64,000 bases of DNA. Origin: Candidatus Vogelbacteria bacterium. GTDB taxonomy: Bacteria > Patescibacteriota > Minisyncoccia > Phycocordibacterales > XYD1-FULL-46-19. The translations under genes and the position numbers were made by a program. Where the stretch lies: the NCBI GenBank assembly GCA_021414225.1, contig JAIOOX010000004.1, positions 66,206-130,205 on the forward strand, read 5' to 3'. The notes beneath the pieces are model-generated. The model was given only the letters and a program-made list of their open reading frames with translations, had not been told where the DNA came from and made no database searches. How positions within the stretch are numbered: the first letter of the stretch is position 1; the number at the start of each line of letters is the position of its first letter. Shown here one piece after another: positions 11,728 through 64,000 of the stretch.

Positions 11728-11728
11728 C

Positions 11729-12232: not shown

Positions 12233-12236
12233 GATT

Positions 12237-12695: not shown

Positions 12696-12697
12696 TT

Positions 12698-13912: not shown

Positions 13913-13914
13913 AA

Positions 13915-15660: not shown

Positions 15661-15700
15661 AATTATTTTCCATTATATCAAACAACCGTCATTCCCCCCA

Positions 15701-15735
15701 ACAAAAAACTCCCTAATTGGGGAGTTTTTTGTTTT
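15701..15735. terminator. Rho-independent terminator after the giant-protein gene
   Basis: aaaaaactccc-taattg-gggagtttttt. Confidence 0.55.
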
Positions 15736-15750
15736 TAAAATTAATTATTT

Positions 15751-42321: not shown

Positions 42322-43374
42322 TTAAAATGGATTTGGTGCCCCACGAATTTCAAAGTGGAGATGAGTACCAGTAGAACGACCAGAGGAACCCATTTGGCCA
42401 ATAACCTCACCTTGAGAAACCGTCTGCCCGACGCCGACATTAACATTGAGTAAATGGGCGTACAAAGTTTGAGTATTATTTTTATGTTTAATGACAATAT
42501 AATTACCATAGCCACCATTCCAACCACCGGTTTTAGCCACAATAACCGTTCCTGAAGCCGAAGCATAAATTTCTGAACCTAACTTATTAGCCAAGTCCAC
42601 ACCGTTTTGTCCGTGGATACCTTGTGTTTTTAAGCCACCACGAGTCGGCCTTAAGTAATAACCAGAATAAACCAATTTATTAGGACTAGGAATTCTAACT
42701 TCACCTCTGACTGGTTGTTTAACAACCGCCACAGGAGGGGCCACTTCTCCATTCGGTACGATTATTTCCATACCCACAGTCAGTTTTGTATCTACTTCTA
42801 AGTTATTAAATTGAGCAATTTCCCTAGCATCACCTTTATACTTTTTAGCAATCGAAGCAACCGTATCTCCTTTAACCACCAAGTGCTTTACTCCTGAAAT
42901 AGGCAAAATAATCAAAACCTGACCTTCCTTTATTGGCTGATTCTTCTTTAAGTCATTGGCCCAGATTATAGTGTTAACAGATACCCCAAACATATTCGCA
43001 ATAGCTGGCAAAGAATCTCCAGTATGAACCACATAAACACTAATATGATCAGCCTTACTAGGTAAGTCTTGGATGTCCACTGCTGTACCTAGTGGACCAG
43101 TCTCGGCCACTAAAGCACTATCATTAACAATCACTATTTCTGCATCAACTAAACCTTTCTTGTCAGCCCCTATGGACATATTACTATTCTCTAATAAAGG
43201 AATCGTCTGCGAGTTTAAAAGTGAAACACTGTCAAGAGTTTGATTTTTATTCACTATAGAAGACAAAACAGAAAGCACTCCAGCCTGAACACTGGTCGCC
43301 ACACTCAAACAAATAATCACACCCAAAAAAAAGACCGTCCGACTAAAAATCGATGCCTTGAGTTTAAATATCAA
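42322..43374 (-). CDS. Secreted M23-family metallopeptidase with two LysM domains (peptidoglycan hydrolase)
   Basis: Signal/TM N-terminus. LysM repeats (HTGDSLPAIANMFGVSVNTIIWAN; KGDTVASIAKKYKGDAREIAQFN). M23 HxxxD...HLHFE catalytic motifs. Confidence 0.9.
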   Translation of the reverse strand: MIFKLKASIFSRTVFFLGVIICLSVATSVQAGVLSVLSSIVNKNQTLDSVSLLNSQTIPLLENSNMSIGADKKGLVDAEIVIVNDSALVAETGPLGTAVDIQDLPSKADHISVYVVHTGDSLPAIANMFGVSVNTIIWANDLKKNQPIKEGQVLIILPISGVKHLVVKGDTVASIAKKYKGDAREIAQFNNLEVDTKLTVGMEIIVPNGEVAPPVAVVKQPVRGEVRIPSPNKLVYSGYYLRPTRGGLKTQGIHGQNGVDLANKLGSEIYASASGTVIVAKTGGWNGGYGNYIVIKHKNNTQTLYAHLLNVNVGVGQTVSQGEVIGQMGSSGRSTGTHLHFEIRGAPNPF

Positions 43375-45969: not shown

Positions 45970-46431
45970 CTAAGAAATTAAGCCTCTAGACTTTAACTCG
46001 TCATAAAGTTTGTCAACTAAAGCATCGTGGAAAGCATCCAAAATAAAAGGTGAGTGGGTGAGGGCTTGATTAATAACCTGCTTTATTCCCTTAACCGGAA
46101 CCAGGGCAATTAAATTATTTATAACAGCCACCGATTGATCATCTAGAGTATCTAAATAACTCTGGTCGCCAACTACCGACTTGGCGACCACCGGCGTAAC
46201 TCCCGCCGGGGCCAAATCTACCCCCACCTGCTCGGTTGAGGTAGTCTGTTCACTAGAGACAAAATTTTCTGTTATCGTCTCACTGATAACTTCGTGATCA
46301 GAAACCACCCCTCTTTCCGATTCTAGTTGTTTTCGTTTAACACTAATTTGACGAGACAACTCTGCTATTTCAGCTTCTAAATTATGAGAGTTGTTCCAAG
46401 TTATATTTTCAGGCATAATGACATTATACAA
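45970..46431 (-). CDS. Hypothetical protein; 6 nt separate its stop from the VirD4-like gene's start
   Basis: 153-aa ORF with a short coiled-coil segment; no recognisable motif. Confidence 0.35.
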   Translation of the reverse strand: MYNVIMPENITWNNSHNLEAEIAELSRQISVKRKQLESERGVVSDHEVISETITENFVSSEQTTSTEQVGVDLAPAGVTPVVAKSVVGDQSYLDTLDDQSVAVINNLIALVPVKGIKQVINQALTHSPFILDAFHDALVDKLYDELKSRGLIS

Positions 46432-46470: not shown

Positions 46471-47247
46471 ATGGAAAAAATAGACAGCTCAAACATTAAT
46501 GAAGAAAATGGTCACCAATTGAATCCTGTTGATCAAAAAAAATACGACAGTCAAAATGAAAACCGTATTAACGAATTATGGGACGCCCTAAAAACAAAAG
46601 AGGCGACTAGACAACAAGAAAACCGACAAATAATAAAAGAGCAAGCTCCTGTTTTATCGGAAGAAAACTTTCTCACCAAATCAGGCGACTATGTAGATTT
46701 CAGTCAAGCCAAATCAATTCCTGAAATCATAGAACAACTAGCCGAACTCGGTGAAATACAACACGGCAATGGTGAAAATATCCAAACCATACCAGCTGAA
46801 CAAATCATTACTTTAATCTATGACCGACTTTACAACCCTTACGCTGACTGGACCAAGATTACCTTACGCCACCGTTTACGAGAATCTATTTATAGACTAG
46901 CTGAAGATTTTAGAAAAACCCCAGACTATTTTAATAATTTAAACGCCAGCCAATACCTAAAGGCCACCAACCTTAATGAATTAAAATTATTTCTAGAAGA
47001 TGAGGTGGCTATCCCAGCCACTAATGGTCAGATCATGACCGGTTCTCAGGCGATTGAAGCCATTGAATATGGCCGACTCGACCTCCTCCCAGCTCAATTG
47101 AGATTTAAAATCATCTCTTTAAACAAACTCTCCGCCACCCAATCAAACCAAACTGCGCCAGCTGTGAGTCCAGCCAAATCTCAAACTTGGCGCCAATCAC
47201 TTACTAATACTTGGTCTTCAGTTAAGTCATTCTTCTCCAGGGGCTAG
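46471..47247 (+). CDS. Hypothetical protein
   Basis: 258-aa ORF, no recognisable motif. Confidence 0.35.
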   Translation: MEKIDSSNINEENGHQLNPVDQKKYDSQNENRINELWDALKTKEATRQQENRQIIKEQAPVLSEENFLTKSGDYVDFSQAKSIPEIIEQLAELGEIQHGNGENIQTIPAEQIITLIYDRLYNPYADWTKITLRHRLRESIYRLAEDFRKTPDYFNNLNASQYLKATNLNELKLFLEDEVAIPATNGQIMTGSQAIEAIEYGRLDLLPAQLRFKIISLNKLSATQSNQTAPAVSPAKSQTWRQSLTNTWSSVKSFFSRG

Positions 47248-49238: not shown

Positions 49239-50099
49239 ATGAAAATTACTGCAAAAAAATCACTTGGGCAAAATTGGCTCAACTCACCAAGTGCTATAAA
49301 TAAAATAGTGACGGCCGGGGAGATTAAACCCACCGACACTATTTTAGAAATTGGTCCTGGCCGAGGCGCTTTGACGAAAGCTTTACTCGCCACTGGCGCC
49401 AAAGTAGTGGCTATTGAAAAAGACCATCAATTGATCAGCGACTTAGAAAATACTTTTGAACCAGAATTAAAAAACGGGCAGCTACAATTACTAGAAGGGG
49501 ATATATTGCAGGCAAGTGAGCTATTAAGTTTGAAGAATATTGCACAGGCTGACCGAGCCGAGCATAGCAATTTTCCAGCAGGAAAATATGCGCATTCTGA
49601 AAACCTAATAGCGAGCAGTTATAAGGTAATCGCTAATATCCCATACTATATTACCGGGGAGTTATTACGTTTATTTTTTGAAACAACAAATCAACCAAGT
49701 CTAATGGTCTTAATGGTCCAAAAGGAAGTAGCCGAAAGAATTGTGGCTCGTGATGGCAAAGAAAGTATTTTATCCATCAGTGTCAAAGTTTACGGTACAC
49801 CTAAAATCATTGCGACCGTGCCGGCCGGCGCTTTTATCCCAAAACCAAACGTGGATTCCGCTATTTTAGCTATAACCAATATCAATCACCAAGCTTTCCC
49901 TAACACACAAACAGAAGTGGACTTTTTTGCTATTGTTAAACAGGGTTTCGCCCAAAAAAGAAAATTAGTCAAAAATAATATAAACTGTTCAGAAGAAATT
50001 ATGACTAAATGTAATTTAAATATTAAAGCCCGGGCAGAAACGTTAACCGTTAGCGACTGGCTTTGTCTCACTAAAAACCTAAAACATAATGACCACTAA
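49239..50099 (+). CDS. rsmA: 16S rRNA (adenine1518/1519-N6)-dimethyltransferase RsmA/KsgA
   Basis: SLGQNWL, ILEIGPGRGALT SAM motif, NIPYYIT. Confidence 0.85.
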   Translation: MKITAKKSLGQNWLNSPSAINKIVTAGEIKPTDTILEIGPGRGALTKALLATGAKVVAIEKDHQLISDLENTFEPELKNGQLQLLEGDILQASELLSLKNIAQADRAEHSNFPAGKYAHSENLIASSYKVIANIPYYITGELLRLFFETTNQPSLMVLMVQKEVAERIVARDGKESILSISVKVYGTPKIIATVPAGAFIPKPNVDSAILAITNINHQAFPNTQTEVDFFAIVKQGFAQKRKLVKNNINCSEEIMTKCNLNIKARAETLTVSDWLCLTKNLKHNDH

Positions 50100-50583: not shown

Positions 50584-50952
50584 CTACAAAGAAGTTCCTA
50601 CCATAAAAATACGAGGAGCAATCATGATCGGCTTACAAGGGTGGTCTCCACCCACAAAGATCACACACACATCAGCTGCCACATAAGTACCCATAATAAA
50701 AGTGCCAGGTTTCCACAAATCAAAGAAAGGGTAAAGAATACTACCAATGCCAAAGATTAAAAACGGGTATGAGGTATTACCGATTGGTCGATTAATAATT
50801 AGGAGATTTAAACTACATACACAGGGGATGGTGGCAATAATTTGACCCCCAAAAGGTAAACCTGGGCCAGCTAAAGCGGGAAAAGGAGCAGCTAAAATCA
50901 AAACCAGCCAACTGACAAGGAACCATTTAGTAAAAGTTTTTACTCTATTCAT
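50584..50952 (-). CDS. Hypothetical integral membrane protein
   Basis: 122 aa, 3-4 TM segments. Its start overlaps the stop of the upstream gene. Confidence 0.35.
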   Translation of the reverse strand: MNRVKTFTKWFLVSWLVLILAAPFPALAGPGLPFGGQIIATIPCVCSLNLLIINRPIGNTSYPFLIFGIGSILYPFFDLWKPGTFIMGTYVAADVCVIFVGGDHPCKPIMIAPRIFMVGTSL

Positions 50953-51908
50953 TAGAGGGATAATTTAAAAGTTTTTGTATTACTAATCTTACCACTATCA
51001 TCTTCAACATAAATACCAACTGGTAAATCTAAATTATAACCACCAACAGAGACAGACATATCTGACGGTACCAGACTAGCCCCACCGTGAACAGGTGAGT
51101 AAATATTTACCACCCCACCAGAAACAGAAACAGTATTCCCATCAGGATCCTTCAGAGTGTCAGTGACATTTAAAGGACTTTTACCTAGAGGATTTTCAAC
51201 TACCACTTTTAAAGTTTTCCCATCGGAAGATCTGACCCTGGTTTTTCTGTTACCACCAACCGAGACAGTATTACCAGTAGTAGAAGTTGAAAAGCCAGCA
51301 CCAGTGATAGTGACACTGGTGTTAACACCCCCATTTTCGGGTGAGATTTTGCTAATTTTAACCTTACTAGAAACTGAGACCGACGGTAAATTGTCACCAT
51401 TAGACCCGTTAATGTTAAACGGCTTACCTCCGCCATAGGTAACTCCCGTCAACTCTTGAAGTGGTGGTGGTTCAGCTGGAATAGTAACACCGATCAAATT
51501 ACCAGGATTAAAGTTGGTAATAGCATTAAAAACATGTCCACCTGTTTCATTACCATAAAGCTCATTTAATACCGCCCTAGTGAGTTGACCCAAAATTCCG
51601 GTTCCTTTTTCTAAACCCAACGGTTCTAAAATAACATCCCCAAATTTTTCTTGAAATTTTGATAGGGCAGAGACCGTTTTAGCTCCAAAAAACTCAGTCT
51701 CCTGTCCAGGAGACCCCGGCCCAGACAAAGACACCTGGGTATTCGGGTCTTTGTTTAACAATTCTTGAAGTTTTTTAACATCTGATCCACTGTCACCTAA
51801 CTTTAAGTTTTTATCTAGACTAGCTAAAACTGGGCTAGAAATAAAAAAGGTGGCTATAATAATTAAAACTAAAAGCCAATGGGTTTTCATTAAAAAATTA
51901 TAGCACAA
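50952..51908 (-). CDS. Secreted protein with an N-terminal putative peptidoglycan-binding (PGBD1-like) domain and an Ig-like/beta-rich C-terminus
   Basis: Signal peptide. LKLGDSGSDVKKLQELLN...FFGAKTVSALSKFQEKFG resembles PG_binding_1. Thr/Ser/Gly/Val-rich beta region. Confidence 0.45.
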   Translation of the reverse strand: MCYNFLMKTHWLLVLIIIATFFISSPVLASLDKNLKLGDSGSDVKKLQELLNKDPNTQVSLSGPGSPGQETEFFGAKTVSALSKFQEKFGDVILEPLGLEKGTGILGQLTRAVLNELYGNETGGHVFNAITNFNPGNLIGVTIPAEPPPLQELTGVTYGGGKPFNINGSNGDNLPSVSVSSKVKISKISPENGGVNTSVTITGAGFSTSTTGNTVSVGGNRKTRVRSSDGKTLKVVVENPLGKSPLNVTDTLKDPDGNTVSVSGGVVNIYSPVHGGASLVPSDMSVSVGGYNLDLPVGIYVEDDSGKISNTKTFKLSL

Positions 51909-51991
51909 CTAAAAAAGTTATCGTTATCCCCGTTATTTAAGAACTTCTATCAACAAACAGTAACTGATATACTATAATTACTAACAGACGT

Positions 51992-52696
51992 ATGACTATT
52001 CGTAAGGTACTTTTTATATTAATAGGCTTAATGATATTAAGTGGTGTTTTGTTGGTAGTTTGGAAACTAGGAGATAAGACTATACAACAAAAACAACAAC
52101 AAGCCGCCGCCGAACAAGCAGCTATTTTAGCCAAAGAGGAACGGGCTAAAATGGTGGCCCTGATTCAAACCATCAACGGAGAAGAGTTTGAGCACTTTGA
52201 TACTGCTACTTGGCCCAAGTTTATTCTAGCCAGTCAACTCAACATCCAAAAAAGTACATCAACTAAAGATGTCCAATCTTATGGTTTGGCTGTAACTAAT
52301 TTAATGAGACCTTTAGTTATTTCGGCCACCCTGCCATCTGAATTATTATTGGAAGCCTACGAAAAAGGAACCCCAGAATCAACCAAACAATTGGATGAAC
52401 TAGCTCAAAATTTCAATTCGGCCACCACCAACTTAAGCCAATTATCTGTTCCAGCCAATGCCGAAGTGGCTCACTTACGCCTAGTTAACAGCCTTCAGCG
52501 CTACAGTTTTATCCTAAACAATATGAATCAAATTAGTAAAAACCCAGTCTGGGCCCTAGAAGCCAGCCAAGACCATAAACAGGTTTTTGAAGAGCTGGTT
52601 AACGACTTGATGTTCATGAATGCTTTTTTTTCGGAACATAAAATAAAAATCTCCAAACAGAACCAGATCCAATTATATATTCCAAATACTCAATGA
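51992..52696 (+). CDS. Hypothetical membrane-anchored protein (first gene of the T4SS-like block)
   Basis: N-terminal TM VLFILIGLMILSGVLLVVW. Stop overlaps the next start (ATGA). Confidence 0.35.
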   Translation: MTIRKVLFILIGLMILSGVLLVVWKLGDKTIQQKQQQAAAEQAAILAKEERAKMVALIQTINGEEFEHFDTATWPKFILASQLNIQKSTSTKDVQSYGLAVTNLMRPLVISATLPSELLLEAYEKGTPESTKQLDELAQNFNSATTNLSQLSVPANAEVAHLRLVNSLQRYSFILNNMNQISKNPVWALEASQDHKQVFEELVNDLMFMNAFFSEHKIKISKQNQIQLYIPNTQ

Positions 52697-55600
52697 CCAG
52701 TTTTTTAAAAAAATCGATCAGTTTAGTCACTATCACTTTTTTGGTGTTACAACCCTTTTTAATTATTAACTCCTATTCAGTTTCGATTATTCCGACAGCT
52801 GTCGCTCAAGACAACTCCGACTGTCAAGGTAACCCAAATTGTACCGGGGAGTATTGGGTAGATCCAAGTGCCAATGAAGGGAACACCGCTGAATCAAATC
52901 CTGATATTGCTAGAGCCCAAGCTGATCGAGAAAAAAAGGATGCGGAAGCAGCTAAAAAAGAAGCTGAAAATGCTCAAAAACTTCAGGAAGAAGACAAGAA
53001 AAAATGTGAGTCCATGCTCAACGGAGGTAAGGACCAAGGTGGAACTCTTGGTAAGGCTTTTAAAAACATTTTCACCAAAGCAGCGACTGGTCTTTTAGGT
53101 TCTCAACTCCCACCAGAATTCAGAGGTATTTTTAATAACACTATAAACACCGCTATCAACGATCCAGCCAACTTAGGTGTGGCCATGCAAGAGTCTTTAG
53201 GTTCTACCATTATCGCTGGAACCAACAAAGCTTTTTCTCAAAATTTTGAACGGGCCATTAATCAAGAAACCAACGGTGGTCAACTACCAATGACCGAAGC
53301 CCGACTAAAAGAAATTGTTGGCGAAGTTTTATCTGTTTCTACAAAAAGTGCTCTACCAGAGGCTACTCAAGCAGCTATGGATCAAGGACTAGCTGGCGCT
53401 ATCCGCAATACTTTAAAAACAAAAACACCCGAACTAGCTTCTGGTTGGGTAGAAGCAGGAGTAGCTAATAATTTCAACGAAAACGGGGCTGACGAATTAA
53501 GAGCTCAGATTGGTGGGCCCCTATTCTCTTTATTGTCTGACCACGCCCGACAAACTCAAAACGACTCTCTCAATCTAAACGGAGCTGATGCTGGGGACTT
53601 ACAAAAGTTTGCTAACACAATTATTGAATTTTTTGTTTCCTCTATTATTACCCAGCTAGAGAACACCACCACAGCAACTGCCATCAATACTGTTTATGAT
53701 GAGGAAGGTAATGTGGTTAGCACTAGTACAACCCAAAGAACCCAAGGCCCCTTAAATCAAAAGGTTGGTCAAGAAGTATTTGATGGACTCAGCACCCTGT
53801 TTGGGACCAATGGATCACCGATTGATAGTGAGGTAGAGAAGAGAATCGCTGAGTTACCAATCGAATCTCTAATTACCGATAGTGGTTTCGCTAGCGCTAA
53901 ACGTAAAATTTTAAGTAACCCGGAAACTCAAAGGGTTTTAAATGGTAATCTAGAAAAACTTCATACCGCCATTCCTTTTAATACTATTGCCAACAGCGTA
54001 AACACAGCCGGTTTAGTTAGTGGAAGCGGTCAGGTCAATATCCAAAAAACAGTCGAGCAGGTAATGATTCAGTTTACTAGTTCTGTTTCTTCTGGTGGAG
54101 GTGGTGGATCAAATGGTAACCCCCTAATTCAGCGAGCAGTTGGTGATGTGGCTGGAAATTTAAGTCAGTCTGTTGGTGGTTTCTTACAAAATTCAAACGG
54201 GGATTTCGCAGGAATTTCAGAATCATTTCAATCTGGATTATCAAACGGCCTTGGCGATATGACTGGAAACCTAGCTAATGGGTTACTAGATAAAGCCTTA
54301 GGAGATACCCCTTTCGCAGGAGTAGTGGATGTCTCTTTTTTAACTGACAGTTTAAGTAGTAGTGTCACCAATCTTTTTGACGGAGTCTTTAATGGTGAAG
54401 GTTTTAATATTGGATCAGCTTTTAGTGACGGTTTTGCTAATTTTAGTTCTGGTTTAGCTCAAGCCGCTTTAGGTGCCGTCCTCGATTTGGCTGGTATTCC
54501 AAAACCAATCGCTAGTATTGTTCAAGGGGTAGTGGATACAGCTACTGCCGTTATTATTCCTTTTGTTCCAAATCGAGAGCAAATGGGCCCGGAACTGACT
54601 GCTTCCAAAAAAACCGCAGCGGCCACTGGTGGGACTCAAGAAAATACCTCTCAAATCAACCAGACAACTCGTAGTCAGGAACAATTAGATGTAGAAGCTT
54701 GTACTAAGTTACGAGCAATTGACCGCAAACAAAACGCCGAAGAACAAAAACAAAAAGTAGAGGAGCCTGATCTAGCCCGTAAGGCAGCTACCGAATTAGA
54801 AAAATACCGTCAAGGTCTACTAGATTGGGTTAAAAAAGGTTATGACAGCACCGGCCAAGGACCTGATAGTCCTTTATATGTTGAAAACACCGACCAACAT
54901 TTAACTAACGTTAAAAAAGAAGCTGGCGAAGTTTTTTATGACGGCCTTAAAAATTCCCCAGACGCTTTCAAAGACCAGACGGAAACCACTCTCCGCAAAA
55001 CAGATCAACCTAATACCCCAGCTTCTGGTGCATACATTGATAAACAACAGTATGATAAATTTGCCACTGGCCGAATAACAAACACTGATGAATGGTGGAA
55101 GACTTATTTTGCTGTAACTGACCCTTTTCATCCAAACTCCCCACAAAATTCACTCAGTTTAGGTCAGACAGTCAAAAACACAGTTGAAACAAAAGCAGTT
55201 GAGCAGGCTAAAGAGGAAATTCAGGCTAGTAACGGTTTTCTCCCAGTTAGAGTTTGTGAAGAATTCACCGCCAATGGTCAAGCTTGTAAACGCTGGAAAA
55301 CGACTACCCCAGCTATTGAAATTAAAGACAGCGTCACGAAAGCTCTAGCTACTAGAGTCGACCAGTATCTAGACCCTAAACTAGGAGCTATCACCGAGGG
55401 TAACCAACCAAGTGTGGAAGAGCTTAGAAACTTCACCCCCCAGACTTCTGGTGGGGGAGGAAATGGACCAGGTACCAAAAATTCTTCCAATATCTTACAG
55501 ACCATCTTAGCTTTCCTTAATACCCTTCGAACCCAACAAGGAAATCAAGGCTCCTTAACACTAAATTATAGTTTGATTAACTCAGCCGGATCACCTTCTT

Positions 55601-55950
55601 CTATTAAACTTTCTTGGCAAGGAAGCAACGTATTGGCCTGCTCTGTCGACAATGACTGGATTGGCCCTGGCCTTAGTCCAAACTTTGTCAGCGTAATCAA
55701 AAGCCAAGGAGATGCCCTCGACACTTCTGGTAGTTTCACTTTTGGAGCACCGCTTACTTTTGACTTACGTTTTTCTCGGACAAGGGCCTCAAGCACTCCA
55801 CCCGAGCAATCAATCGTTGTTGTTACCGTTAACCGTGATCCAGGTTTATACCAACAGAAAAATATCACCTTACCAACCGATCTAAAACCTGGTGATCTGG
55901 CCATTTATCGACAACTTATCATTATCGGTGCCTATTGGTACAGATACTAG
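52693..55950 (+). CDS. Large (1085 aa) secreted or cell-surface protein of the T4SS-like cluster
   Basis: Signal/TM N-terminus. Low-complexity Gly/Ser/Asn/Ala-rich extracellular body with GGGGGSNG tracts. No catalytic motif recognised. Confidence 0.45.
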   Translation: MTSFLKKSISLVTITFLVLQPFLIINSYSVSIIPTAVAQDNSDCQGNPNCTGEYWVDPSANEGNTAESNPDIARAQADREKKDAEAAKKEAENAQKLQEEDKKKCESMLNGGKDQGGTLGKAFKNIFTKAATGLLGSQLPPEFRGIFNNTINTAINDPANLGVAMQESLGSTIIAGTNKAFSQNFERAINQETNGGQLPMTEARLKEIVGEVLSVSTKSALPEATQAAMDQGLAGAIRNTLKTKTPELASGWVEAGVANNFNENGADELRAQIGGPLFSLLSDHARQTQNDSLNLNGADAGDLQKFANTIIEFFVSSIITQLENTTTATAINTVYDEEGNVVSTSTTQRTQGPLNQKVGQEVFDGLSTLFGTNGSPIDSEVEKRIAELPIESLITDSGFASAKRKILSNPETQRVLNGNLEKLHTAIPFNTIANSVNTAGLVSGSGQVNIQKTVEQVMIQFTSSVSSGGGGGSNGNPLIQRAVGDVAGNLSQSVGGFLQNSNGDFAGISESFQSGLSNGLGDMTGNLANGLLDKALGDTPFAGVVDVSFLTDSLSSSVTNLFDGVFNGEGFNIGSAFSDGFANFSSGLAQAALGAVLDLAGIPKPIASIVQGVVDTATAVIIPFVPNREQMGPELTASKKTAAATGGTQENTSQINQTTRSQEQLDVEACTKLRAIDRKQNAEEQKQKVEEPDLARKAATELEKYRQGLLDWVKKGYDSTGQGPDSPLYVENTDQHLTNVKKEAGEVFYDGLKNSPDAFKDQTETTLRKTDQPNTPASGAYIDKQQYDKFATGRITNTDEWWKTYFAVTDPFHPNSPQNSLSLGQTVKNTVETKAVEQAKEEIQASNGFLPVRVCEEFTANGQACKRWKTTTPAIEIKDSVTKALATRVDQYLDPKLGAITEGNQPSVEELRNFTPQTSGGGGNGPGTKNSSNILQTILAFLNTLRTQQGNQGSLTLNYSLINSAGSPSSIKLSWQGSNVLACSVDNDWIGPGLSPNFVSVIKSQGDALDTSGSFTFGAPLTFDLRFSRTRASSTPPEQSIVVVTVNRDPGLYQQKNITLPTDLKPGDLAIYRQLIIIGAYWYRY

Positions 55951-56168
55951 CCCAGCAACAATTTTGTCTAACTTGAGACAAGCTATCAGCAACGTCCAAA
56001 GTTCCGATGAAAACCCATTACAGAAAGCAGAATTTTTGAAATACTCTTTCTCTGAACCAGAAGTGGCTAGAAAAATGATTACAGTCAAACCAAAAACTAC
56101 TTATAGTATTTCTTGTGTTGATAAACAAGGCAACAACATCAAAAAAAGTGTTACAATAGGGCTATAAT

Positions 56169-59126
56169 ATGCACCGGATAATTTCCGTGACTCTAATAGT
56201 TGGAATAATTGCACCAATTCTTATTGGCTTTTTGCCGGTAACAGTCCAAGCTCAACTAAATGATCCAGCTGAAACCACCCCCACCGGACAATTAGCTAAC
56301 ACTGCGGAATGTAGTGTGGCCACCACAAATGGCGCCACCGATGTTAATTCACTAGCTTCAGTTAAAAATAATCTGGCTGAAAAAGCCGCCAAGCTGACCC
56401 AACTTTCACGAGACCTGACTTCTTTAGATCAACAATTAGTTATTCTCCAAGAATTAAATAAAAATATTGTCCAAGGAGAGAGTTCTGGCGCAACTGGCTG
56501 GGTTTATAATACTAGTGAGTATAATGGTTGGGTAGAACAGCGGAGAAATATCTCTCAAAAAATATTACTCCAAATAAAAAATATAAGTGACGGTTTCCCA
56601 GAAAAAAGCAATGATTTGGGATATGTTTATAATTCAACATATTACCCTCAAAACACCAACCCTGTAACCATATTGAGTAACGATCTTACTAATCAAAATG
56701 AAGTAAAAAATCTAATTGATCGTGGAGAAAGAGTCATTCTTACCACCAAAGACGATGTCGCTACTATCAATAAAAATATTGATAGTATAAATATATGTAA
56801 CACCCAGACAACCACTCCTGACGACCAAGAGGCTATTACCCAGCAACAAGAGGACGCAGCTGCTAGAGCTTCCGCCGAAGAAGCAGCCAACAATACCCGA
56901 GCTGAATCTATCGCTGATACAAACAGCAACTCTACCCCAGCCTTACCCTTATCAGAATGTGTAATGTGGAAAGCTGGGACCTGGTTATCATGTTTCAGAG
57001 ATGCGGTCAGCGCTTTAATGCAAATTATGACCTGGCTATTTTCTTTTGTGGTTTATTTAGCGGCCAAAGTCTTTAATGCTGCTATTTCTTATTCTATTTT
57101 AGACTTCAAAGACATGACTGATAGTCTTTTCATTTCGACTCTCTGGGCCACAGTCAGAGATATCGCCAACATGATGATTATCTTTTTCTTGTTATACATC
57201 GCCCTAGCCACAATCCTCCAACTACAATCAGTCGATACCGCTAAAGCTTTTACGGCTATTATCATAGTCTCCCTGTTGGTAAATTTTAGTGGAGTTATCA
57301 CTAGAGTGGCTATTGATGTTTCCAATGTTAGCGCCCTGGTCTTCTATAATAGATTTGTTGGGACCGATGGCCAGGCCGATCTTAGTGGTTACTTTATTAT
57401 GAACAGTGATTTAGGTAAGTTAATTACAGTCGACCCCACTCGACCAGGAGGAAACAACGACGTATCAAGTCAAATTTTTGCTATTTTAGTTAAAGGTTTT
57501 TCGAATGCTATTCTTTCCTGTATAACCGCTTTTGTTTTAATTATGGCTGCCGGTTTCTTTATTGTTAGAACAGCTACTTTAATCTTTTTAATCATTCTGT
57601 CGCCACTGGCTTTTATTGGCTACGCTATTCCTTTTGTTAAAACTAAAGTTTCTGATGTTTGGTATAAAGAATTAATCGGCCAGATTACCTTTGCCCCAGT
57701 CTTTATGGGTTTATTTTACTTCACCATCAAACTTACAGAGGGAGTTAACAGTTTAGATGTTAGAGCAGTCGATTCCGCAGCTGGTCAGGTGATCATTTAC
57801 GCGATGTTGATGGCCATGATGCTTGGTTGTTTAAAAATAGCCAGAAACTCCGCTACCGGCATGGCTTCCAGTCAAATAAAATCTTGGGGTTCAGCTGGGG
57901 CTGGCTTTTTGGGAGGAGCCATAGCAACAAACACCTTAGGTAGGGGGGCTAGTAGTTTAGCTAAAAGTAAAACATTTAATAGTGCCGCGGCTAGAATACC
58001 TGGAGGTGGGTTGGCAATTACAGGTTTAAACAAAATGTCTAATTACGGTTTTGGTAGTAAGCAAGGTTATATAGCAAGAACATCGGCCAGTGAAAAAGTT
58101 CTTTCAGAACAAATGCAAAATATGAATACTGAACAAAAGGTTAAATTTATTTCTAGATTTAACACAAAAACCCAACAAATTAATGCTTATAACGCTCTCA
58201 GTGATAAAGATAAAATTGCTCTTGAATTAGAGGTCCAAAAGAACCCTCAGAAATATTCTTCCGAAGAAAGGATGTTTGGAACAGCTTGGGCTAGATCTGG
58301 AATTAGAATTGAATCAATGAAAGGCCAACTAAGAGGTGAGAAGCAAGAAAACTTAAATAAAGCAATTGAAACAGAAAAAGTTAAGGACATTAGAAAACAG
58401 GCCGCTGAGGAAAAAACTGAAGCTGAACGTTATAAAAAACTAGCTAGCCTGGTGGCTCAAATTAGCAGTGACGATGAAAGAAAAACTGTCTTTGGTGGAT
58501 TAACTGACAAAGAAAGGGCGGCTATTGTCTCTCACTCATCAGTAGAAGACAAGACAACTTTAGAGTCTCTAGCATCTAAACTTACTGGTGAAAAATATGA
58601 GAAATACCAAGAGGAAACAAGAAAAATGACTCAGGGTACCGCTCGAGTTGAGGTTAAAAACCACTTAAAAGAAATCGCCAATGGAAACAGAACAAGGATA
58701 GACACTGAAGCTGGTATGCCGATACTTGACGACTTAGAAGATAGTGTAAAAAAACTCAATCCAAATGATGTAATAACATTAGAAGAAGATTTATTAATCA
58801 ATCCTAATATCAACCGCTTCTTCTCTAAACAACACCTAACTGCTATTTGGAAAGATAAATTTATTAGCCAAGAAACCAGGGACAAGATCTATGAAAACAT
58901 AGTTACAAATAATAATGGTTACCCCGAATCCATACAATGGTGTCAAAACAATATAGGAATTCAAACCCAAAGACGTTTACATAGAGAAAGATTATCTAAT
59001 GAGGAGCGTGCCGAGAGAGCTCGAAGGGTTCCCGATAACGCTTATGTGCCACCAAGAGCCAGAGGATTAGGAAATCCTTTTAACGCTGATGAGGATGAGG
59101 AAAATAACACACAAAACCAAAATTAA
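56169..59126 (+). CDS. Large polytopic membrane protein, VirB6/TrbL-like by architecture
   Basis: 985 aa. Signal peptide and about 260-aa extracellular domain, then a block of 6 or more TM helices (aa ~270-600), then a long charged cytoplasmic tail. Confidence 0.4.
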   Translation: MHRIISVTLIVGIIAPILIGFLPVTVQAQLNDPAETTPTGQLANTAECSVATTNGATDVNSLASVKNNLAEKAAKLTQLSRDLTSLDQQLVILQELNKNIVQGESSGATGWVYNTSEYNGWVEQRRNISQKILLQIKNISDGFPEKSNDLGYVYNSTYYPQNTNPVTILSNDLTNQNEVKNLIDRGERVILTTKDDVATINKNIDSINICNTQTTTPDDQEAITQQQEDAAARASAEEAANNTRAESIADTNSNSTPALPLSECVMWKAGTWLSCFRDAVSALMQIMTWLFSFVVYLAAKVFNAAISYSILDFKDMTDSLFISTLWATVRDIANMMIIFFLLYIALATILQLQSVDTAKAFTAIIIVSLLVNFSGVITRVAIDVSNVSALVFYNRFVGTDGQADLSGYFIMNSDLGKLITVDPTRPGGNNDVSSQIFAILVKGFSNAILSCITAFVLIMAAGFFIVRTATLIFLIILSPLAFIGYAIPFVKTKVSDVWYKELIGQITFAPVFMGLFYFTIKLTEGVNSLDVRAVDSAAGQVIIYAMLMAMMLGCLKIARNSATGMASSQIKSWGSAGAGFLGGAIATNTLGRGASSLAKSKTFNSAAARIPGGGLAITGLNKMSNYGFGSKQGYIARTSASEKVLSEQMQNMNTEQKVKFISRFNTKTQQINAYNALSDKDKIALELEVQKNPQKYSSEERMFGTAWARSGIRIESMKGQLRGEKQENLNKAIETEKVKDIRKQAAEEKTEAERYKKLASLVAQISSDDERKTVFGGLTDKERAAIVSHSSVEDKTTLESLASKLTGEKYEKYQEETRKMTQGTARVEVKNHLKEIANGNRTRIDTEAGMPILDDLEDSVKKLNPNDVITLEEDLLINPNINRFFSKQHLTAIWKDKFISQETRDKIYENIVTNNNGYPESIQWCQNNIGIQTQRRLHRERLSNEERAERARRVPDNAYVPPRARGLGNPFNADEDEENNTQNQN

Positions 59127-59129
59127 AAT

Positions 59130-59588
59130 ATGACTAAAGACCTAGATATTTTTAGAGAAAAATTTGAAAGGTTACCCGAAGACGTCAGGGGTGCCATTTT
59201 TGCAGTTGAAACAACAGATGTTATTGCTAATATCCAAAAGAAGTTCAAACTTCATGTTGACCAAACAGGTAAACTAGCTGAGGAAGTTGGACTGGTGATG
59301 CTTGGTTTTAGTAAACCAAATGAGTTTGTTGGTAAGATAACAAAAAACCTACAGGTAACTCAAATAACAGCTGTAGAAATCACCAAAGATATAAACGACA
59401 AGATCTTCAACCCAATCAAGGAATCATTAAAACAAATTCACAACCTAGAAAACTCCGGCAACGAACCTTTAATAAAGACTAGACCAACAGATTCTGATAC
59501 TATTTTTGATTCTAAACTCAAAGGTTTATTTAGCGCCAGTACTACAAGCACTAATAAGGTGGCGGATCCTTACCACGAGGGGATATAG
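59130..59588 (+). CDS. Hypothetical soluble protein of the T4SS-like cluster
   Basis: 152-aa ORF, tightly packed 3 nt after the previous gene. Confidence 0.35.
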   Translation: MTKDLDIFREKFERLPEDVRGAIFAVETTDVIANIQKKFKLHVDQTGKLAEEVGLVMLGFSKPNEFVGKITKNLQVTQITAVEITKDINDKIFNPIKESLKQIHNLENSGNEPLIKTRPTDSDTIFDSKLKGLFSASTTSTNKVADPYHEGI

Positions 59589-59619
59589 TAAAACAACAAT
59601 ATGATATACTGAGTGAGTT

Positions 59620-60030
59620 ATGAATTTTCAAGTTCCTCAATTTATCGAGATTGAAGATAAAGTGATTGGACCATTGTCTTTCAAGCAGTTTATTTATGTG
59701 GCTGGAGCGGCTGGTTTGTCTTTTATTTGTTACGCTTTTTTACCTCTATACTTAGCTTTCCTACCCATTGCGGGTCTAATGACTCTTGGTTTAGCTTTAG
59801 CTTTTTATCAAGTAAACAACAGGCCTTTCATTATCACTCTCCAGTCAGCCTTGCGTTACTTCACTAGTCATAAACTTTATTTATGGCAACAGCGAACAAA
59901 CGACAACCTCTCAATCAGCCCCCAAAACGGCAAATCAGATGAAGGTGGATCACTTGAGGCCCCTAGACTATCTAAGAGCAAACTATCTGACCTATCTTGG
60001 AATTTAGATATTAAAGAAACTATTCAATAA
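59620..60030 (+). CDS. Small two-TM protein, VirB3/PrgI-like, immediately upstream of VirB4
   Basis: 136 aa. N-terminal amphipathic segment, then two adjacent TM helices (LSFICYAFLPLYLAFLPIAGLMTLGLALAF). Position and size match VirB3-like subunits. Confidence 0.45.
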   Translation: MNFQVPQFIEIEDKVIGPLSFKQFIYVAGAAGLSFICYAFLPLYLAFLPIAGLMTLGLALAFYQVNNRPFIITLQSALRYFTSHKLYLWQQRTNDNLSISPQNGKSDEGGSLEAPRLSKSKLSDLSWNLDIKETIQ

Positions 60031-60034
60031 AGTC

Positions 60035-60673
60035 ATGCCTATTACTGGTAAATCAACTCAAGATTTTGTGCCTATCAAAGAAATCAGGGATGGTGTCGTC
60101 ATCTTGCGTGACGGGGGACTACGTTTAGTTTTAATTGCCTCATCTATTAACTTCGCCCTTAAATCAGCGGATGAGAAAACTGCTATTTTACTTCAGTACC
60201 AAAATTTCCTTAACTCCCTTGATTTTCATATTCAAATTTTCATCCAGTCGCGACGTTTAGATATTTCTCCATATATTAGTACCTTAGAGGTTAGACTCAA
60301 AGAACAGACTAATGAGTTACTAAAAGTTCAAACTAGAGAGTATATTGGCTTTATTAAGAGTTTTACCGAGAATAACAATGTGATGACCAAAACTTTCTTT
60401 ATTAGTATTCCTTACGAACCAGCTGTCTATAAAAACAAAGATTCTCTCTTCAATAAAATAGTTCCTGCTTCTTTATTTGGCCAAAAGAATAACACGGTCT
60501 CCGAAACAGACAATTTCCAAGAAAATCGCGCTCAGTTAGAACAACGAGTTGACGTTGTTAAGCAGGGCTTAAATAGAATTGGAGTTCGAACAGAACAATT
60601 AGGAACCGAGGAATTAGTTGAGCTTTATTTTAAATTATTTAATCCTGGCGAAAAAACTGCCCCAACAGTTTAA
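60035..60673 (+). CDS. VirB4/TraE-family N-terminal domain encoded as a separate 212-aa ORF, separated from the ATPase body by a frameshift
   Basis: FVPIKEIRDGVVILRDGGLRLVLIASSINFALKSADEKTAILLQYQNFLNSL...IQIFIQS matches the conserved N-terminus of Gram-positive conjugative VirB4 ATPases. The ORF ends at TAA just after a gaaaaaa (A6) run. Confidence 0.6.
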   Translation: MPITGKSTQDFVPIKEIRDGVVILRDGGLRLVLIASSINFALKSADEKTAILLQYQNFLNSLDFHIQIFIQSRRLDISPYISTLEVRLKEQTNELLKVQTREYIGFIKSFTENNNVMTKTFFISIPYEPAVYKNKDSLFNKIVPASLFGQKNNTVSETDNFQENRAQLEQRVDVVKQGLNRIGVRTEQLGTEELVELYFKLFNPGEKTAPTV

Positions 60674-60680
60674 ATTAATT

Positions 60681-62525
60681 ATGTGGCCATTTTCTAAAAA
60701 AACTGAAGAGACAACCTTAACCCCCGTCTTACCTAAAGATGTTTATGAGACGGGGATCTTGCAGTTACGAGATATTATTGCCCCATCCGCCCTTAAGGTC
60801 ACTCCTAAAAGCTTAAACTTGGGAGACAAGATAGCTAGAACTTTATTTGTTATTTCTTATCCTCGGTTCCTCAACGAAGAGTGGTTTTCACCTATTATCG
60901 ACCTGGATAAGGTTTTTGATGTTAGTATTTTTATCCATCCTCTTGATTCAGCTGAAGCTCTGCGGACCCTACAGAAGAAACTGGCCGAGGTCCAAAGTCA
61001 GATTAGAATTAAAGAAGACAAGGGTTTTGTTCGCGACCCGGTCTTAGACACCGCTTATCAAGACATTGAAAGTTTGAGAGACCAACTCCAACAAGCTCAA
61101 GAAAAAATCTTTGACGTTGGTTTATATATCACTATCTATGGTAGTAACGACGAAGAAGTTGACCGAGTAGAATCCGAACTCAAATCAATGCTTGATGCCA
61201 AGTTGATTTACCTCAAACCAGCCCTCTTTCAACAAGAAGATGGCTTTCGCAGTGTTATCCCAACTAGCACCGATCTGATTGAAGTTCATACCAAATTAAA
61301 CTCCTCGCCACTATCGAGTCTTTTTCCTTTTGTCTCTTTTGACTTAACTTCCAACAAAGGAATCTTGTACGGTATTAACCGCCACAATTCTTCTTTGGTT
61401 TTGTTTGATCGCTTCTCTTTAGAGAACTACAATTCTGTGGTTTTTGCTAAATCTGGTTCTGGTAAATCCTATACCACCAAACTAGAGATCCTCCGTAGTT
61501 TGATGTTTGACACTGATGTGATTGTTATCGACCCAGAACGAGAATATGAATTCTTAACCGATGCAGTGGGTGGTAGATACTTTAACATCTCTCTAACGTC
61601 TGAACACCACATCAACCCATTTGATTTGCCACTACCTAGGGAGGACGAATCAGCCGCTGATATCCTAAGGTCAAACATTATTACTTTAGTTGGTCTCTTT
61701 CGTATTATGCTTGGTGGCTTAACTCCAGAAGAGGATTCCATTATCGACAACGCTATCAGTGAAACCTATGCCTTAAAAGATATTACCCCCGACAGTGATT
61801 TCTCTAACAAACCAGCCCCTTTATTGTCAGACCTGGCCTTGGTTTTAGCCGGCATGGAAGGTGGAGAATCTCTAGCCCAACGCCTCCTTAAATATACTCA
61901 AGGTTCTTGGGCTGGCTTTATTAACAAACCAACTAATGTCGATATTAATAAAAAATTCGTCGTTTTCTCCGTCCGCGACATGGAAGATGAGTTGAAACCC
62001 GTGGCAATGTATATTGTTATCCACCATATCTGGACAGCTGTTAGACGAAACCTTAAAAAGAGACTCCTGGTGGTTGATGAGGCTTGGTGGATGATGAAGT
62101 CGGAAGACACCGCTTCTTTCTTGTTTTCACTAGTTAAACGAGGACGTAAATATTTCTTAGGCACCGCCACTATCACTCAGGACGTAGGGGACTTTATGCG
62201 TTCACCTTACGGCTTACCAATCATTACCAACTCTTCAATTCAAATCCTTCTCAAGCAATCTCCCGCCTCAATTGATTTAGTACAAAAAACTTTTAACCTA
62301 ACCGATGAGGAAAAATTCCTACTCCTAGAATCAAACGTGGGGGAGGGTATTTTCTTTGCCGGTCTTAAAAGAGTAGCAATTAAAATTATTGCTTCTTATA
62401 CTGAAGATCAAATTATAACGTCCGACCCATCACAACTTCTAGCCATTAAACGAGCCAAGCAAGAATTAGCCCAGGAAGCAGAAACTGACTCTCAAGCACG
62501 TTATGGACAAGGAGCAAACCAATAA
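60681..62525 (+). CDS. VirB4-like T4SS ATPase, central and C-terminal ATPase portion
   Basis: Walker A AKSGSGKSYTTK, IVIDPEREY, Walker B LLVVDEAWWM, GRKYFLGTATITQD. The open frame continues upstream to 60618 and overlaps the previous ORF. Confidence 0.8.
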   Translation: MWPFSKKTEETTLTPVLPKDVYETGILQLRDIIAPSALKVTPKSLNLGDKIARTLFVISYPRFLNEEWFSPIIDLDKVFDVSIFIHPLDSAEALRTLQKKLAEVQSQIRIKEDKGFVRDPVLDTAYQDIESLRDQLQQAQEKIFDVGLYITIYGSNDEEVDRVESELKSMLDAKLIYLKPALFQQEDGFRSVIPTSTDLIEVHTKLNSSPLSSLFPFVSFDLTSNKGILYGINRHNSSLVLFDRFSLENYNSVVFAKSGSGKSYTTKLEILRSLMFDTDVIVIDPEREYEFLTDAVGGRYFNISLTSEHHINPFDLPLPREDESAADILRSNIITLVGLFRIMLGGLTPEEDSIIDNAISETYALKDITPDSDFSNKPAPLLSDLALVLAGMEGGESLAQRLLKYTQGSWAGFINKPTNVDINKKFVVFSVRDMEDELKPVAMYIVIHHIWTAVRRNLKKRLLVVDEAWWMMKSEDTASFLFSLVKRGRKYFLGTATITQDVGDFMRSPYGLPIITNSSIQILLKQSPASIDLVQKTFNLTDEEKFLLLESNVGEGIFFAGLKRVAIKIIASYTEDQIITSDPSQLLAIKRAKQELAQEAETDSQARYGQGANQ

Positions 62526-63102
62526 AATAAGCATAGTAACAAGCTCGGCAATGCTTCTTGTCGCATCCTTTTTTGACTTAATTAGCTTAATACCATTTGT
62601 TAATATCATTTCCAGCGTTATCGCCTGGATGATTTTCACTGTCTGGTTTTATTTCTTGGGCGCTGGATTACTTAACACTAAAAAACTAGCTACAGTTAGT
62701 CTTAGTTTTTTAGCTGAATTAATTCCTTTTGTTAGTATGTTACCTCTGATAACTACCGGTGTTTTTATTTTAATTTTCATGCAAAACAATCCAGTCCTAG
62801 GGAAATTAGCCCATAAAGGTCTCGATATAAAAAAACAGTCTCTAAATAAAAAGATTCAGGGTTTTGAATCAAATAAAAGTCAGCTACTGCCGTCAGATAC
62901 TAAAAAAATAGAAGGGGGCAAACAAATCACTAATTCAAATAAACAAAGTCTGGAAACTAAAACCGAGACAACACCCTCACCGACAACCACTACAGACAAA
63001 CGCTTAGAAAATCAAATACCCCAAAGAAGATTTATTAGAGACATTGACCCACCTGCCCCTTATGGTGAAGAAGACCAAGATGAGTTCAATATCGCCGCTT
63101 AG
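62503..63102 (+). CDS. Hypothetical polytopic membrane protein following VirB4
   Basis: 199 aa, 3-4 TM helices, Thr/Pro-rich tail. Overlaps the VirB4 end by 23 nt. Confidence 0.4.
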   Translation: MDKEQTNKISIVTSSAMLLVASFFDLISLIPFVNIISSVIAWMIFTVWFYFLGAGLLNTKKLATVSLSFLAELIPFVSMLPLITTGVFILIFMQNNPVLGKLAHKGLDIKKQSLNKKIQGFESNKSQLLPSDTKKIEGGKQITNSNKQSLETKTETTPSPTTTTDKRLENQIPQRRFIRDIDPPAPYGEEDQDEFNIAA

Positions 63103-63156: not shown

Positions 63157-64000
63157 GTGACAGTCTTAGAAAAAGCCTTATACCTAATAAAAAAAATATT
63201 CCTGCTAACCGCAGTTGTTTTCTGTGTCTTGCCACACTTAACCCAAGCTGTTACAGAGTCAACCCTAGGTGGAACTTTGATCTCTACCATCAATCCCAAA
63301 CACCCTAGACCAGGAGAGGTGGTCAATATTAAACTTAGTAGTTATGGTTATAGTTTAGAGAATAGTAAAATATCTTGGTTTGTAAACCAAAAACTTCAAT
63401 TAGAAGGGGCGGCCAAAAAAGAACACGTAGTTACAATGGGTCCAAATGGTAGCCAGACTAGTGTTACTATCCTGGTCGAAAACTCAGCTGGTAAACAAAT
63501 TGTTAAAAATTTAACTTTTAACCCGGCTGATGTAGACCTTATTTGGGAAGCAGATACCTACATCCCAGACGACTATCAGGGAGCCGCCCTACCCAGTCTT
63601 GGCAGTAGGGTGACGGTAACAGCTATACCAAATTTAAAAGAAACCGGTTTTAATATTCCAGCTAACGAGTTAATTTTTACTTGGACCAAAGACTACAAAA
63701 CCATACCAAACCAGTCGGGTAGAGGTAAGGACTCATTTAGTTTTGACCTAAATCAACCAAGTGCCCAGATTGATGTTTTGGTTCAGTCACCTAATTTTAA
63801 AATAGAAGCTTACAACCGAGCAATTATCACCGCTTATGAGCCAGAATTAGTTCTCTATCCAGTCAAACCACTTCTAGGTCGTATTTTAGAGGCTTTCAAT
63901 TCTTCTTTCTCTATTAGCCCTGATATGTCAGGACTTCAAATAGAACCTTATTTTGTATCCAAAAATTTAATCCGACAAGGCTTAGTAAACTACGAATGGT
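63157..64000 (+). CDS. Secreted protein, partial; continues beyond the window end
   Basis: Frame open from 63151 to 64000 with no stop. GTG 63157 gives VTVLEKALYLIKKIFLLTAVVFCVLPHLTQA|VTE, signal-peptide-like. Not in the ORF track because it is unterminated. Confidence 0.45.
   Translation, partial: MTVLEKALYLIKKIFLLTAVVFCVLPHLTQAVTESTLGGTLISTINPKHPRPGEVVNIKLSSYGYSLENSKISWFVNQKLQLEGAAKKEHVVTMGPNGSQTSVTILVENSAGKQIVKNLTFNPADVDLIWEADTYIPDDYQGAALPSLGSRVTVTAIPNLKETGFNIPANELIFTWTKDYKTIPNQSGRGKDSFSFDLNQPSAQIDVLVQSPNFKIEAYNRAIITAYEPELVLYPVKPLLGRILEAFNSSFSISPDMSGLQIEPYFVSKNLIRQGLVNYEW

Follow-up and report, generated by a model that had tools for sequence, protein, structure and literature searches.

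A chromosomal type IV secretion gene cluster with a split VirB4 and an extended VirB6-like protein in Candidatus Vogelbacteria

The type IV secretion systems (T4SSs) of Patescibacteria are listed among the newest members of the superfamily in a 2025 review (PMC12857230). A survey of these systems (Quinonero-Coronel et al. 2025, PMC12102498) found that their VirB4 proteins form a clade nested in the Gram-positive mating pair formation class FATA (MPF-FATA). In the same survey, the gene most often associated is TrsD, PrgI and VirB6 are encoded close by, the homologues of coupling proteins are usually unlinked and relaxases are almost absent. In Paceibacteria, the T4SS locus lies near dnaA, dnaN, rnpA and ksgA (PMC12102498). 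The cluster SEML1_0006-0019 of Southlakia epibionticum is essential for epibiotic growth, and delivery of protein or DNA to the host has been proposed (Wang et al. 2023, PMC10633639). Here, we analyzed a stretch of 64,000 nucleotides (nt), hereafter the window, from a Candidatus Vogelbacteria genome (Patescibacteria, class Paceibacteria), in which an original prediction made from the sequence had placed a T4SS-like gene cluster. Profile searches and gene order indicate that this cluster is a real T4SS. It belongs to an already published kind, the chromosomal origin-proximal Patescibacteria T4SS, and is a typical example of it rather than a new system. Judged from sequence, it is very probably a vertically inherited chromosomal machine typical of Patescibacteria, in the Paceibacteria arrangement.

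The locus resembles the described Patescibacteria clade (PMC12102498, PMC10633639) in most respects. It is chromosomal, encodes PrgI, TrsD and VirB4 side by side with a VirB6 homologue close by, and has neither a relaxase nor outer-membrane core proteins; its coupling-protein homologue is unlinked. Moreover, it lies near ksgA and, in relatives, near dnaA, dnaN and rnpA, and in relatives a VirB2-like pilin is encoded near virB4. It differs in being a Paceibacteria locus and not the experimentally studied Saccharimonadia one. Additionally, the Southlakia type has a 6-gene pilin array, whereas relatives of the Vogelbacteria locus have one (or two) pilin-type genes, with no pilin gene inside the window. 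The large secreted protein, a 152-amino-acid (aa) protein ending in DPYxE, a protein with three transmembrane (TM) helices and an immunoglobulin (Ig)-like protein, all encoded in the cluster, have no assigned counterpart in the published Patescibacteria T4SS descriptions that we compared.

Likeness to Gram-positive MPF-FATA systems is also evident. The order TrsC-TrsD-TrsE in the trs region of pGO1/pSK41 matches PrgI-TrsD-VirB4, and TrsD/TrsE is a precedent for a divided VirB4. PrgH-PrgI-PrgJ in the prg region of pCF10 matches VirB6-VirB3-VirB4, except that here the 152-aa gene lies between the VirB6-like gene and PrgI, and CTn2 (CD1110) provides the best VirB4 model. The monoderm architecture, without VirB7, VirB9 and VirB10, is shared. 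Unlike these systems, the locus is not on a mobile element and has no relaxase and no PrgB-type adhesin, and a VirB8-like component (PrgL/TcpC) and a multidomain PrgK-type hydrolase are undetectable in the operon. Relatives of the Vogelbacteria locus have a pilin, whereas the Gram-positive systems are without one.

Translocon genes of the cluster

ORF calling revealed an unbroken run of plus-strand genes from position 51992 to the window end. Its first two genes overlap by 4 nt; then come spacers of 3, 31, 4 and 7 nt, an overlap of 23 nt and a final spacer of 35 nt. The sole long gap, of 218 nt, follows a 1085-aa open reading frame (ORF), because that ORF is a truncated reading of a 1163-aa gene. 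The original prediction had described contiguous, tightly packed genes, and all the ORFs that it listed were found in their places. Profile matches and a modelled fold show that the predicted translocon gene set consists of PrgI/VirB3, a split VirB4 and an extended VirB6-like protein, in a conserved chromosomal operon that encodes many exported proteins. For comparison, 80 loci were fetched via VirB4, each from a different species' genome, and ORFs were called in them; some of the counts given below are over 84 loci.

The 136-aa PrgI/VirB3-like protein (59620-60030) matches Pfam PrgI PF12666 above threshold (E 7.7e-9, 36.4 bits against a cutoff of 27), in agreement with the original call. Its gene is directly upstream of TrsD/VirB4 in the window and adjoins TrsD/VirB4 in 78 of the 84 loci.

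VirB4 is encoded as two genes, one for a TrsD-like N-terminal domain and one for the ATPase, and this split is conserved in relatives. The 614-aa ATPase, the C-terminal part (60681-62525), scores 369 bits against a cutoff of 325 with NCBIfam NF045971 (VirB4-like conjugal transfer ATPase, CD1110 family), covering positions 185-733 of the 752-position model. It also matches Pfam P-loop_TraG (E 3e-26) and carries the Walker A motif AKSGSGKS and the Walker B motif LLVVDE. The 212-aa TrsD-like protein (60035-60673), corresponding to the VirB4 N-terminal domain, matches positions 2-127 of the same CD1110 model (E 1.8e-8), the Mbov_0397 VirB4 model (E 2.9e-10) and, weakly, TrsD/TraD (E 0.002) in NCBIfam, and its precomputed annotation is Pfam TraC-like PF26593. 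The two ORFs cover complementary stretches of the full-length VirB4 model. The TrsD stop codon (60671-60673) and the virB4 ATG (60681) are separated by 7 nt, with the ORFs in different frames, and in 83 of the 84 loci virB4 likewise has an ORF of ~213 aa in front of it that is separate. The ORFs' own starts, this recurrence and the TrsD/TrsE precedent rule out that the split stems from a frameshift or from faulty sequencing. The original prediction had recognized the VirB4 ATPase, and this family call stands above the NCBIfam cutoff with both Walker motifs; it had missed that two ORFs make up the protein.

The 120 best database matches of the ATPase are all 578-625 aa long and 79-97% identical, and the named relatives among them are all Patescibacteria (Vogelbacteria, Paceibacterota and Parcubacteria). 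The 985-aa protein of the cluster has an exact counterpart annotated in a metagenome-assembled genome of Candidatus Vogelbacteria (locus tag K8Q91_03560). The best-matching NCBIfam models of VirB4 from outside the Candidate Phyla Radiation are MPF-FATA types.

The 985-aa protein (56169-59126) is accepted as an extended VirB6 on the strength of its TM layout, the Pfam matches of its homologues and its predicted fold. An N-terminal signal/anchor leads into a helical ectodomain of ~255 aa, and beyond this lie seven more hydrophobic segments (residues 279-555) and a charged tail of ~430 aa that is predicted to be cytoplasmic. Pfam TrbL/VirB6 PF04610 is matched by 11 of 60 orthologues, and no other family recurs among them; two homologues, P0123 (32.3 bits) and P0138 (27.8 bits), pass the TrbL gathering cutoff of 25.9, and the core of the family consensus matches TrbL at E 1e-4. 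A search of PDB sequences with the family profile returned noise or coiled-coil matches only. In the AlphaFold model, the confidence (pLDDT) of the TM core is mostly above 90, with a dip at residues ~400-430. The top four Foldseek matches of this model in the PDB are all TrwI/VirB6 of R388 (probability 0.95-1.0, target-normalised TM-score 0.39-0.56, E 0.04-0.13), with a similarly folded TM core at an identity of 11-14% over the aligned columns. Additionally, hhalign aligned the near-invariant W498 of the family with W197 of Agrobacterium tumefaciens VirB6 (E 0.045).

The 'extended VirB6' proteins of Rickettsiales likewise have large hydrophilic extensions (reviewed in PMC12857230). Gram-negative VirB6 systems differ from the Vogelbacteria locus, in which the VirB6-like protein has the N-terminal helical ectodomain and the charged C-terminal tail described above, and in which no VirB5 partner is recognizable. 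The VirB6/TrbL-like architecture originally proposed for this protein is borne out by the TrbL matches of the orthologues and by a structure prediction with a confident TM core, whose best PDB folds are TrwI/VirB6. Across the profile searches, the large proteins were not assigned to unrelated families, and the VirB4 call held up, as did, more weakly, the VirD4 call.

Exported proteins and other members of the cluster

The second gene of the operon (52693-56167) encodes a large secreted surface protein and is disrupted in the window, where it is read as a 1085-aa ORF (52693-55950) and a leftover 91-aa ORF (55892-56167). The Logan contig L001 (SRR15633504_140612, run SRR15633504) has 17 extra bases at window position ~55895 and matches the window at each of the remaining 13,303 aligned bases. 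In L001, the gene encodes 1163 aa and abuts the next gene, and three close homologues have 1159-1163 aa. The frameshift in the window yields the two ORFs, the shorter of which encodes the true C-terminus. Because an otherwise identical public contig carries the intact gene, the 17-bp deletion either arose in the assembly of this genome or is a strain variant that knocks out the most variable T4SS protein. The 1085-aa secreted protein of the original prediction is thus present as an ORF, and its length is that of a truncated reading.

The N-terminal half of the 1163-aa protein consists of a signal peptide and a G/S/N/A-rich region of ~640 aa. After it come a mostly helical Cys domain of ~230 aa (residues ~685-935) and an Ig-like beta domain, and the protein ends in a small alpha/beta domain. 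The ~230-aa domain corresponds to window positions 54745-55500, has conserved cysteines and consensus motifs including GGW..W, NNPYGAY and TPG, and is common to nearly all positional orthologues, whose lengths range from 323 to 1256 aa; in the shorter ones it directly follows the signal peptide. Pfam scans of the members and of the family consensus gave no match for this domain, and its profile retrieved only noise or coiled-coil matches from PDB sequences. A phmmer search over 1.84 billion representatives found only 89 relatives. The AlphaFold model of the secreted protein (mean pLDDT 80.8) shows a long-helix domain, an Ig-like domain and a small alpha/beta domain, and fold searches with the model gave generic Ig-like matches only; the original prediction had proposed structure prediction for this protein as well. 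The gene is directly upstream of the VirB6 gene, where virB5 sits in Agrobacterium. Comparison with the single A. tumefaciens VirB5 sequence gave an hhalign probability of 0.05, a one-sequence template being a weak test.

The first operon gene (51992-52696) encodes a 234-aa bitopic protein with one TM helix at residues 6-24, as the original description of a membrane-anchored first protein had it, and a mostly helical extracytoplasmic domain. Positional orthologues in 40 loci are ~300 aa long and often carry a bacterial TSP3 (DxDxDG) calcium-binding repeat, TSP3_bac being the sole Pfam match of the family consensus. No PDB sequence matched the family, and hhalign gave 0.14 against a single A. 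tumefaciens VirB8, again a weak test with a one-sequence template. The top promoter-like match of the region (10/12) lies directly upstream of this gene, at 51950-51978; in the promoter and terminator scan of the region, promoter-like sites overall were not above chance.

The 152-aa protein (59130-59588) has neither a TM helix nor a signal peptide and is therefore presumably cytoplasmic. Its N-terminal ~100 aa form a conserved domain, and its extreme C-terminus carries a near-invariant DPY(R/H)E motif (window 59565-59579); in an alignment of 49 orthologues, D146 and Y148 are invariant and P147 and E150 are conserved in at least 90%. From its sequence, this motif looks like a short docking peptide for some partner. 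Searches with the window protein, the family consensus and the family profile gave no Pfam or PDB sequence match.

Directly downstream of virB4 lies the gene of a small polytopic membrane protein of 199 aa (62503-63102; 183 aa if translation begins at the ATG at 62551). Its three hydrophobic helices are accompanied by a hydrophilic tail that is variable. It belongs to a conserved family in this position, of which 39 orthologues were aligned; neither the members nor the consensus gave a consistent Pfam or PDB match, and from PDB sequences its profile, like those of the 152-aa and 234-aa families, retrieved nothing beyond noise or coiled coils. A pilin identity is ruled out for this protein, given that no signal peptide and no T4SS_pilin or TrbC match was found in the 39 members. 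Both this ORF and that of the 152-aa protein, listed in the original prediction, were confirmed.

The last ORF in the window (63157-64000) runs off its end, as had been noticed originally, and represents the 5' part (281 of 340 codons) of a gene for a secreted Ig/PKD-like protein, which is 340 aa at full length in L001. It matches the profile of 61 positional orthologues (hmmsearch E 3e-75), and the family consensus has PKD_3 and Ig domain matches. This assignment implies that the cluster continues for ~3 more genes past the window and is then followed by the replication origin region. The boundary originally set at 63102 was therefore misplaced, since conserved genes continue past this position and past the window edge.

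On the minus strand at the upstream edge of the cluster, a 318-aa secreted protein (50952-51908) has the Pfam domains PG_binding_1 (25.0 bits against 23) and IPT/TIG (25.7 against 20.9), in line with the peptidoglycan-binding protein reported there by the original prediction. Homologues occur in 10 fetched loci, where most of them immediately precede the cluster and are encoded on the other strand, and the gene is an optional, divergently transcribed neighbour of it. A 122-aa secreted hydrophobic Cys-containing protein (50584-50952, minus strand), without a Pfam or NCBIfam match, is co-transcribed with the peptidoglycan-binding gene. A small TM ORF of 110-140 aa occupies the same position in several relatives, and membership of the 122-aa protein in the system is uncertain.

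Gene order and conservation in relatives

The relatives share one gene order. It begins with KsgA, which in the window lies at 49239-50099, sometimes followed on the minus strand by the small TM protein and the peptidoglycan-binding protein, and continues with the 1-TM protein of ~300 aa, the secreted protein (323-1256 aa), the VirB6-like protein, a soluble protein of 150-380 aa, PrgI, TrsD and VirB4. These are followed by the small 3-4-TM protein, the Ig/PKD-like secreted protein of ~335 aa, a 3-TM VirB2-like pilin and a 1-TM protein of ~420 aa with PD40/TolB-like repeats, and then by yidC, rnpA, rpmH, dnaA and dnaN on their usual strands. Genomes with yidC-rnpA-dnaA-dnaN after the cluster include one whose VirB4 is 88% identical to that of the window. 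Because this gene order recurs in the genomes of 80 species, the gene cluster exceeds what chance would produce.

Median identity to the window proteins is 76% for VirB4, 57% for TrsD, 45% for PrgI, 31% for the 152-aa protein, 28% for the VirB6-like protein, 27% for the 234-aa protein and 23% for the secreted protein. Conservation falls from the cytoplasmic to the predicted exposed parts, which fits surface parts that face a changing partner. Across the 80 species, VirB4 is far more conserved than the adjoining housekeeping protein KsgA (46%), a degree of conservation that secretion ATPases do not usually show and that speaks for a core gene.

The pilin position, normally the third gene downstream of virB4, is expected ~1-2 kb past window position 64000. 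We collected 53 proteins from this position, mostly from loci L002-L084. Pfam T4SS_pilin was matched by 39 of them and, above the cutoff, by the family consensus. Most carry a long variable C-terminal extension, and in ~12 of the 53 the C-terminus is a peptidoglycan enzyme: YkuD, NlpC/P60, M15/VanY, SLT, phage lysozyme or amidase. Locus L086, from the relative with the 88% identical VirB4, has two paralogues (13347-14363 and 15598-16530) with an almost identical pilin domain, each followed by a TolB-like gene. One has a lysozyme domain by Pfam; the C-terminus of the other, without a Pfam match at E up to 0.05, looks M15/LAS-peptidase-like by its HxxGxAxD...HWH motif. We found no description of such pilin-hydrolase fusions in PMC12102498 or in the rest of the literature searched.

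These proteins may belong to a distinct T4SS architecture, in which the secreted protein with the Cys domain would be a tip or stalk subunit on the VirB6 ring and the pilin would carry interchangeable hydrolases. We consider this idea rather doubtful and put it forward tentatively. If it is true, enzymes that cut the wall would be displayed to the host cell on the pilus or stalk itself, an arrangement absent from the literature searched.

Neighbouring genes, alternative explanations and function

A candidate coupling protein is encoded outside the operon. This VirD4/TraG-like P-loop ATPase of 791 aa (43589-45964, minus strand) lies 6 kb upstream of the cluster on the opposite strand and is unlinked to it. 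It has one N-terminal TM helix, the Walker A motif GQTGTGKS at residue 396 and a TraG-D_C region. Its matches are partial: Pfam TrwB_AAD_bind over the P-loop stretch only (E 7.7e-6, 25.5 bits against 20.5), Pfam TraG-D_C (E 0.0015), NCBIfam TraD/CD1115 and, in the PDB, TrwB over 44 residues (E 1.7e-4). The gene seen in the original prediction is present, and the VirD4 call, with matches confined to the P-loop and TraG-D_C, is a weaker one. It is flanked by genes for two proteins without a Pfam match, of 153 aa (45970-46431, minus strand) and 258 aa (46471-47247, plus strand). The former is immediately upstream on the same strand, with a 5-nt spacer, and may be a partner.

No hydrolase domain was found by Pfam or NCBIfam in the plus-strand cluster genes of the window. 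The M23 peptidase with LysM repeats that had been reported upstream is confirmed by Pfam (350 aa, 42322-43374, minus strand; Peptidase_M23 E 4e-30, LysM E 4.5e-22), 8.6 kb from the cluster and on the other strand. It is possibly a VirB1-type cell-wall hydrolase located outside the operon. A homologue lies upstream of KsgA in four relatives (L021, L039, L043 and L060), with UvrD between in three of them, and just upstream of PrgI in L032.

In the window, the cluster is flanked by the housekeeping genes KsgA, DUF192, UvrD and ComM, as identified by Pfam. Other genes encode RecJ (2428-4185), ComEC (487-1971, minus strand), PGK, TIM, NusA, trigger factor, ClpP, RNase Y, the CCA enzyme, a Xer-type recombinase and four tRNAs. 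A type IV pilus locus near ComEC and RecJ (9445-20064, minus strand) includes the PilB ATPase (13915-15660) and PilC (12698-13912). It also contains three short ORFs, of 167-175 aa, at 11212-12764 and encodes two large proteins without a Pfam match, of 577 aa (9445-11178) and 1437 aa (15751-20064).

One alternative is that the cluster is the transfer module of an integrative and conjugative element (ICE) or a degraded plasmid and conjugates DNA between cells. Its VirB4 is indeed closest to conjugative Gram-positive families (CD1110 and the Mbov_0397 ICE), the VirD4/TraG-like ATPase is 6 kb away, and a tyrosine recombinase is encoded at 34749-35675. However, this recombinase is probably Xer-type and sits among housekeeping genes 16 kb from the cluster, and the VirD4-like gene is unlinked and only partially matched. 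No GC shift marks the locus (GC is even across the window, at 0.37-0.43) and no tRNA flanks it, the nearest being at 32.8 kb and all at least 18 kb from the cluster. In agreement with the original prediction, no relaxase is visible: Pfam scans of the window ORFs of at least 120 aa, in which a few ORFs shorter than 200 aa were left out, matched no relaxase family. Relaxases occur in only 103 of 3,035 Patescibacteria genomes, rarely near virB4 (PMC12102498). In dozens of species the locus keeps its place between ksgA and dnaA, quite unlike a mobile element, and its VirB4 is more conserved than KsgA. We regard conjugation by such an element as very improbable.

A machine for DNA uptake or release that supplies nucleotides or genes to a cell incapable of making them, like Helicobacter ComB, archaeal Ced or the gonococcal genetic island (GGI) of Neisseria, is improbable as well, if less so. 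Patescibacteria are generally reported to lack nucleotide synthesis, a lack that this organism presumably shares. ComEC, RecJ, ComM and the type IV pilus locus are encoded in the window, and VirB4 weakly matches the archaeal DNA importers CedB and CedD. These Ced matches are, however, far below the cutoff (39 bits against 700), and ComEC and the pilus already provide a dedicated competence route in the window. Moreover, deletion of comEC in Southlakia abolished competence and not viability, whereas the T4SS is essential (PMC12857230). Least probable of all, and hardly credible, is a decaying remnant, with a reduced genome turning its T4SS locus into pseudogenes. The 17-bp deletion does break the largest gene and VirB4 is in two pieces, but the split is ancient (83 of 84 loci), has a precedent in TrsD/TrsE of pGO1 and leaves both parts strongly constrained, with median identities of 57% and 76%. 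No other gene is disrupted, and the otherwise identical public contig has the intact 1163-aa gene.

Several points weigh against reading the locus as a vertically inherited Patescibacteria T4SS that acts on a host. The 985-aa protein of the window itself is not significant against Pfam TrbL, and the E-values of its TrwI fold matches (0.04-0.13) are modest. Neither a VirB8-like nor an in-operon VirB1-like component is shown within the window, and the pilin, TolB-like and origin-proximal genes are seen in relatives only, since the window ends before them. The secreted-protein gene is frameshifted, so that a real deletion could mean an impaired T4SS in this strain. The function is wholly inferred, the essentiality data coming from another class (Saccharimonadia) and not from Paceibacteria, and the VirD4-like ATPase, ComEC and the type IV pilus locus in the window leave room for a role related to DNA.

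For the vertically inherited T4SS, we propose the following model. VirB4 hexamers docked on VirB3/VirB6 would power the assembly of a channel across a single membrane and the cell wall, and VirB4 probably also drives the assembly of a short pilus or stalk there. Variable surface proteins would contact the host cell, and hydrolases, pilin-borne in relatives, would open the host wall. The VirD4-like ATPase, unlinked as it is, may supply the T4SS with substrates or have no part in this. Because no relaxase or oriT-type module accompanies the locus, the machine would not conjugate DNA and would instead move proteins or other material between epibiont and host. Host interaction in preference to classical conjugation agrees with PMC10633639 and PMC12102498; the original prediction had named effector delivery to a host cell as one option, beside DNA uptake or transfer.

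Patescibacteria account for a large share of bacterial diversity and live attached to other microbes. Their T4SS is among the few machines shown to be essential for this attached lifestyle, which has been shown only in Saccharibacteria. The window carries both envelope machines thought to underlie epibiotic life, the T4SS and the type IV pilus. Taken together, the locus adds a clean Paceibacteria example with a parts list that comprises the translocon, six conserved partners without a family assignment and fast-evolving surface proteins, which most likely determine the host range. The conserved domain at the place of virB5, so far uncharacterised, and the fusions of pilin and hydrolase in relatives, undescribed in the literature searched, are testable leads on how the machine may reach through the host wall.

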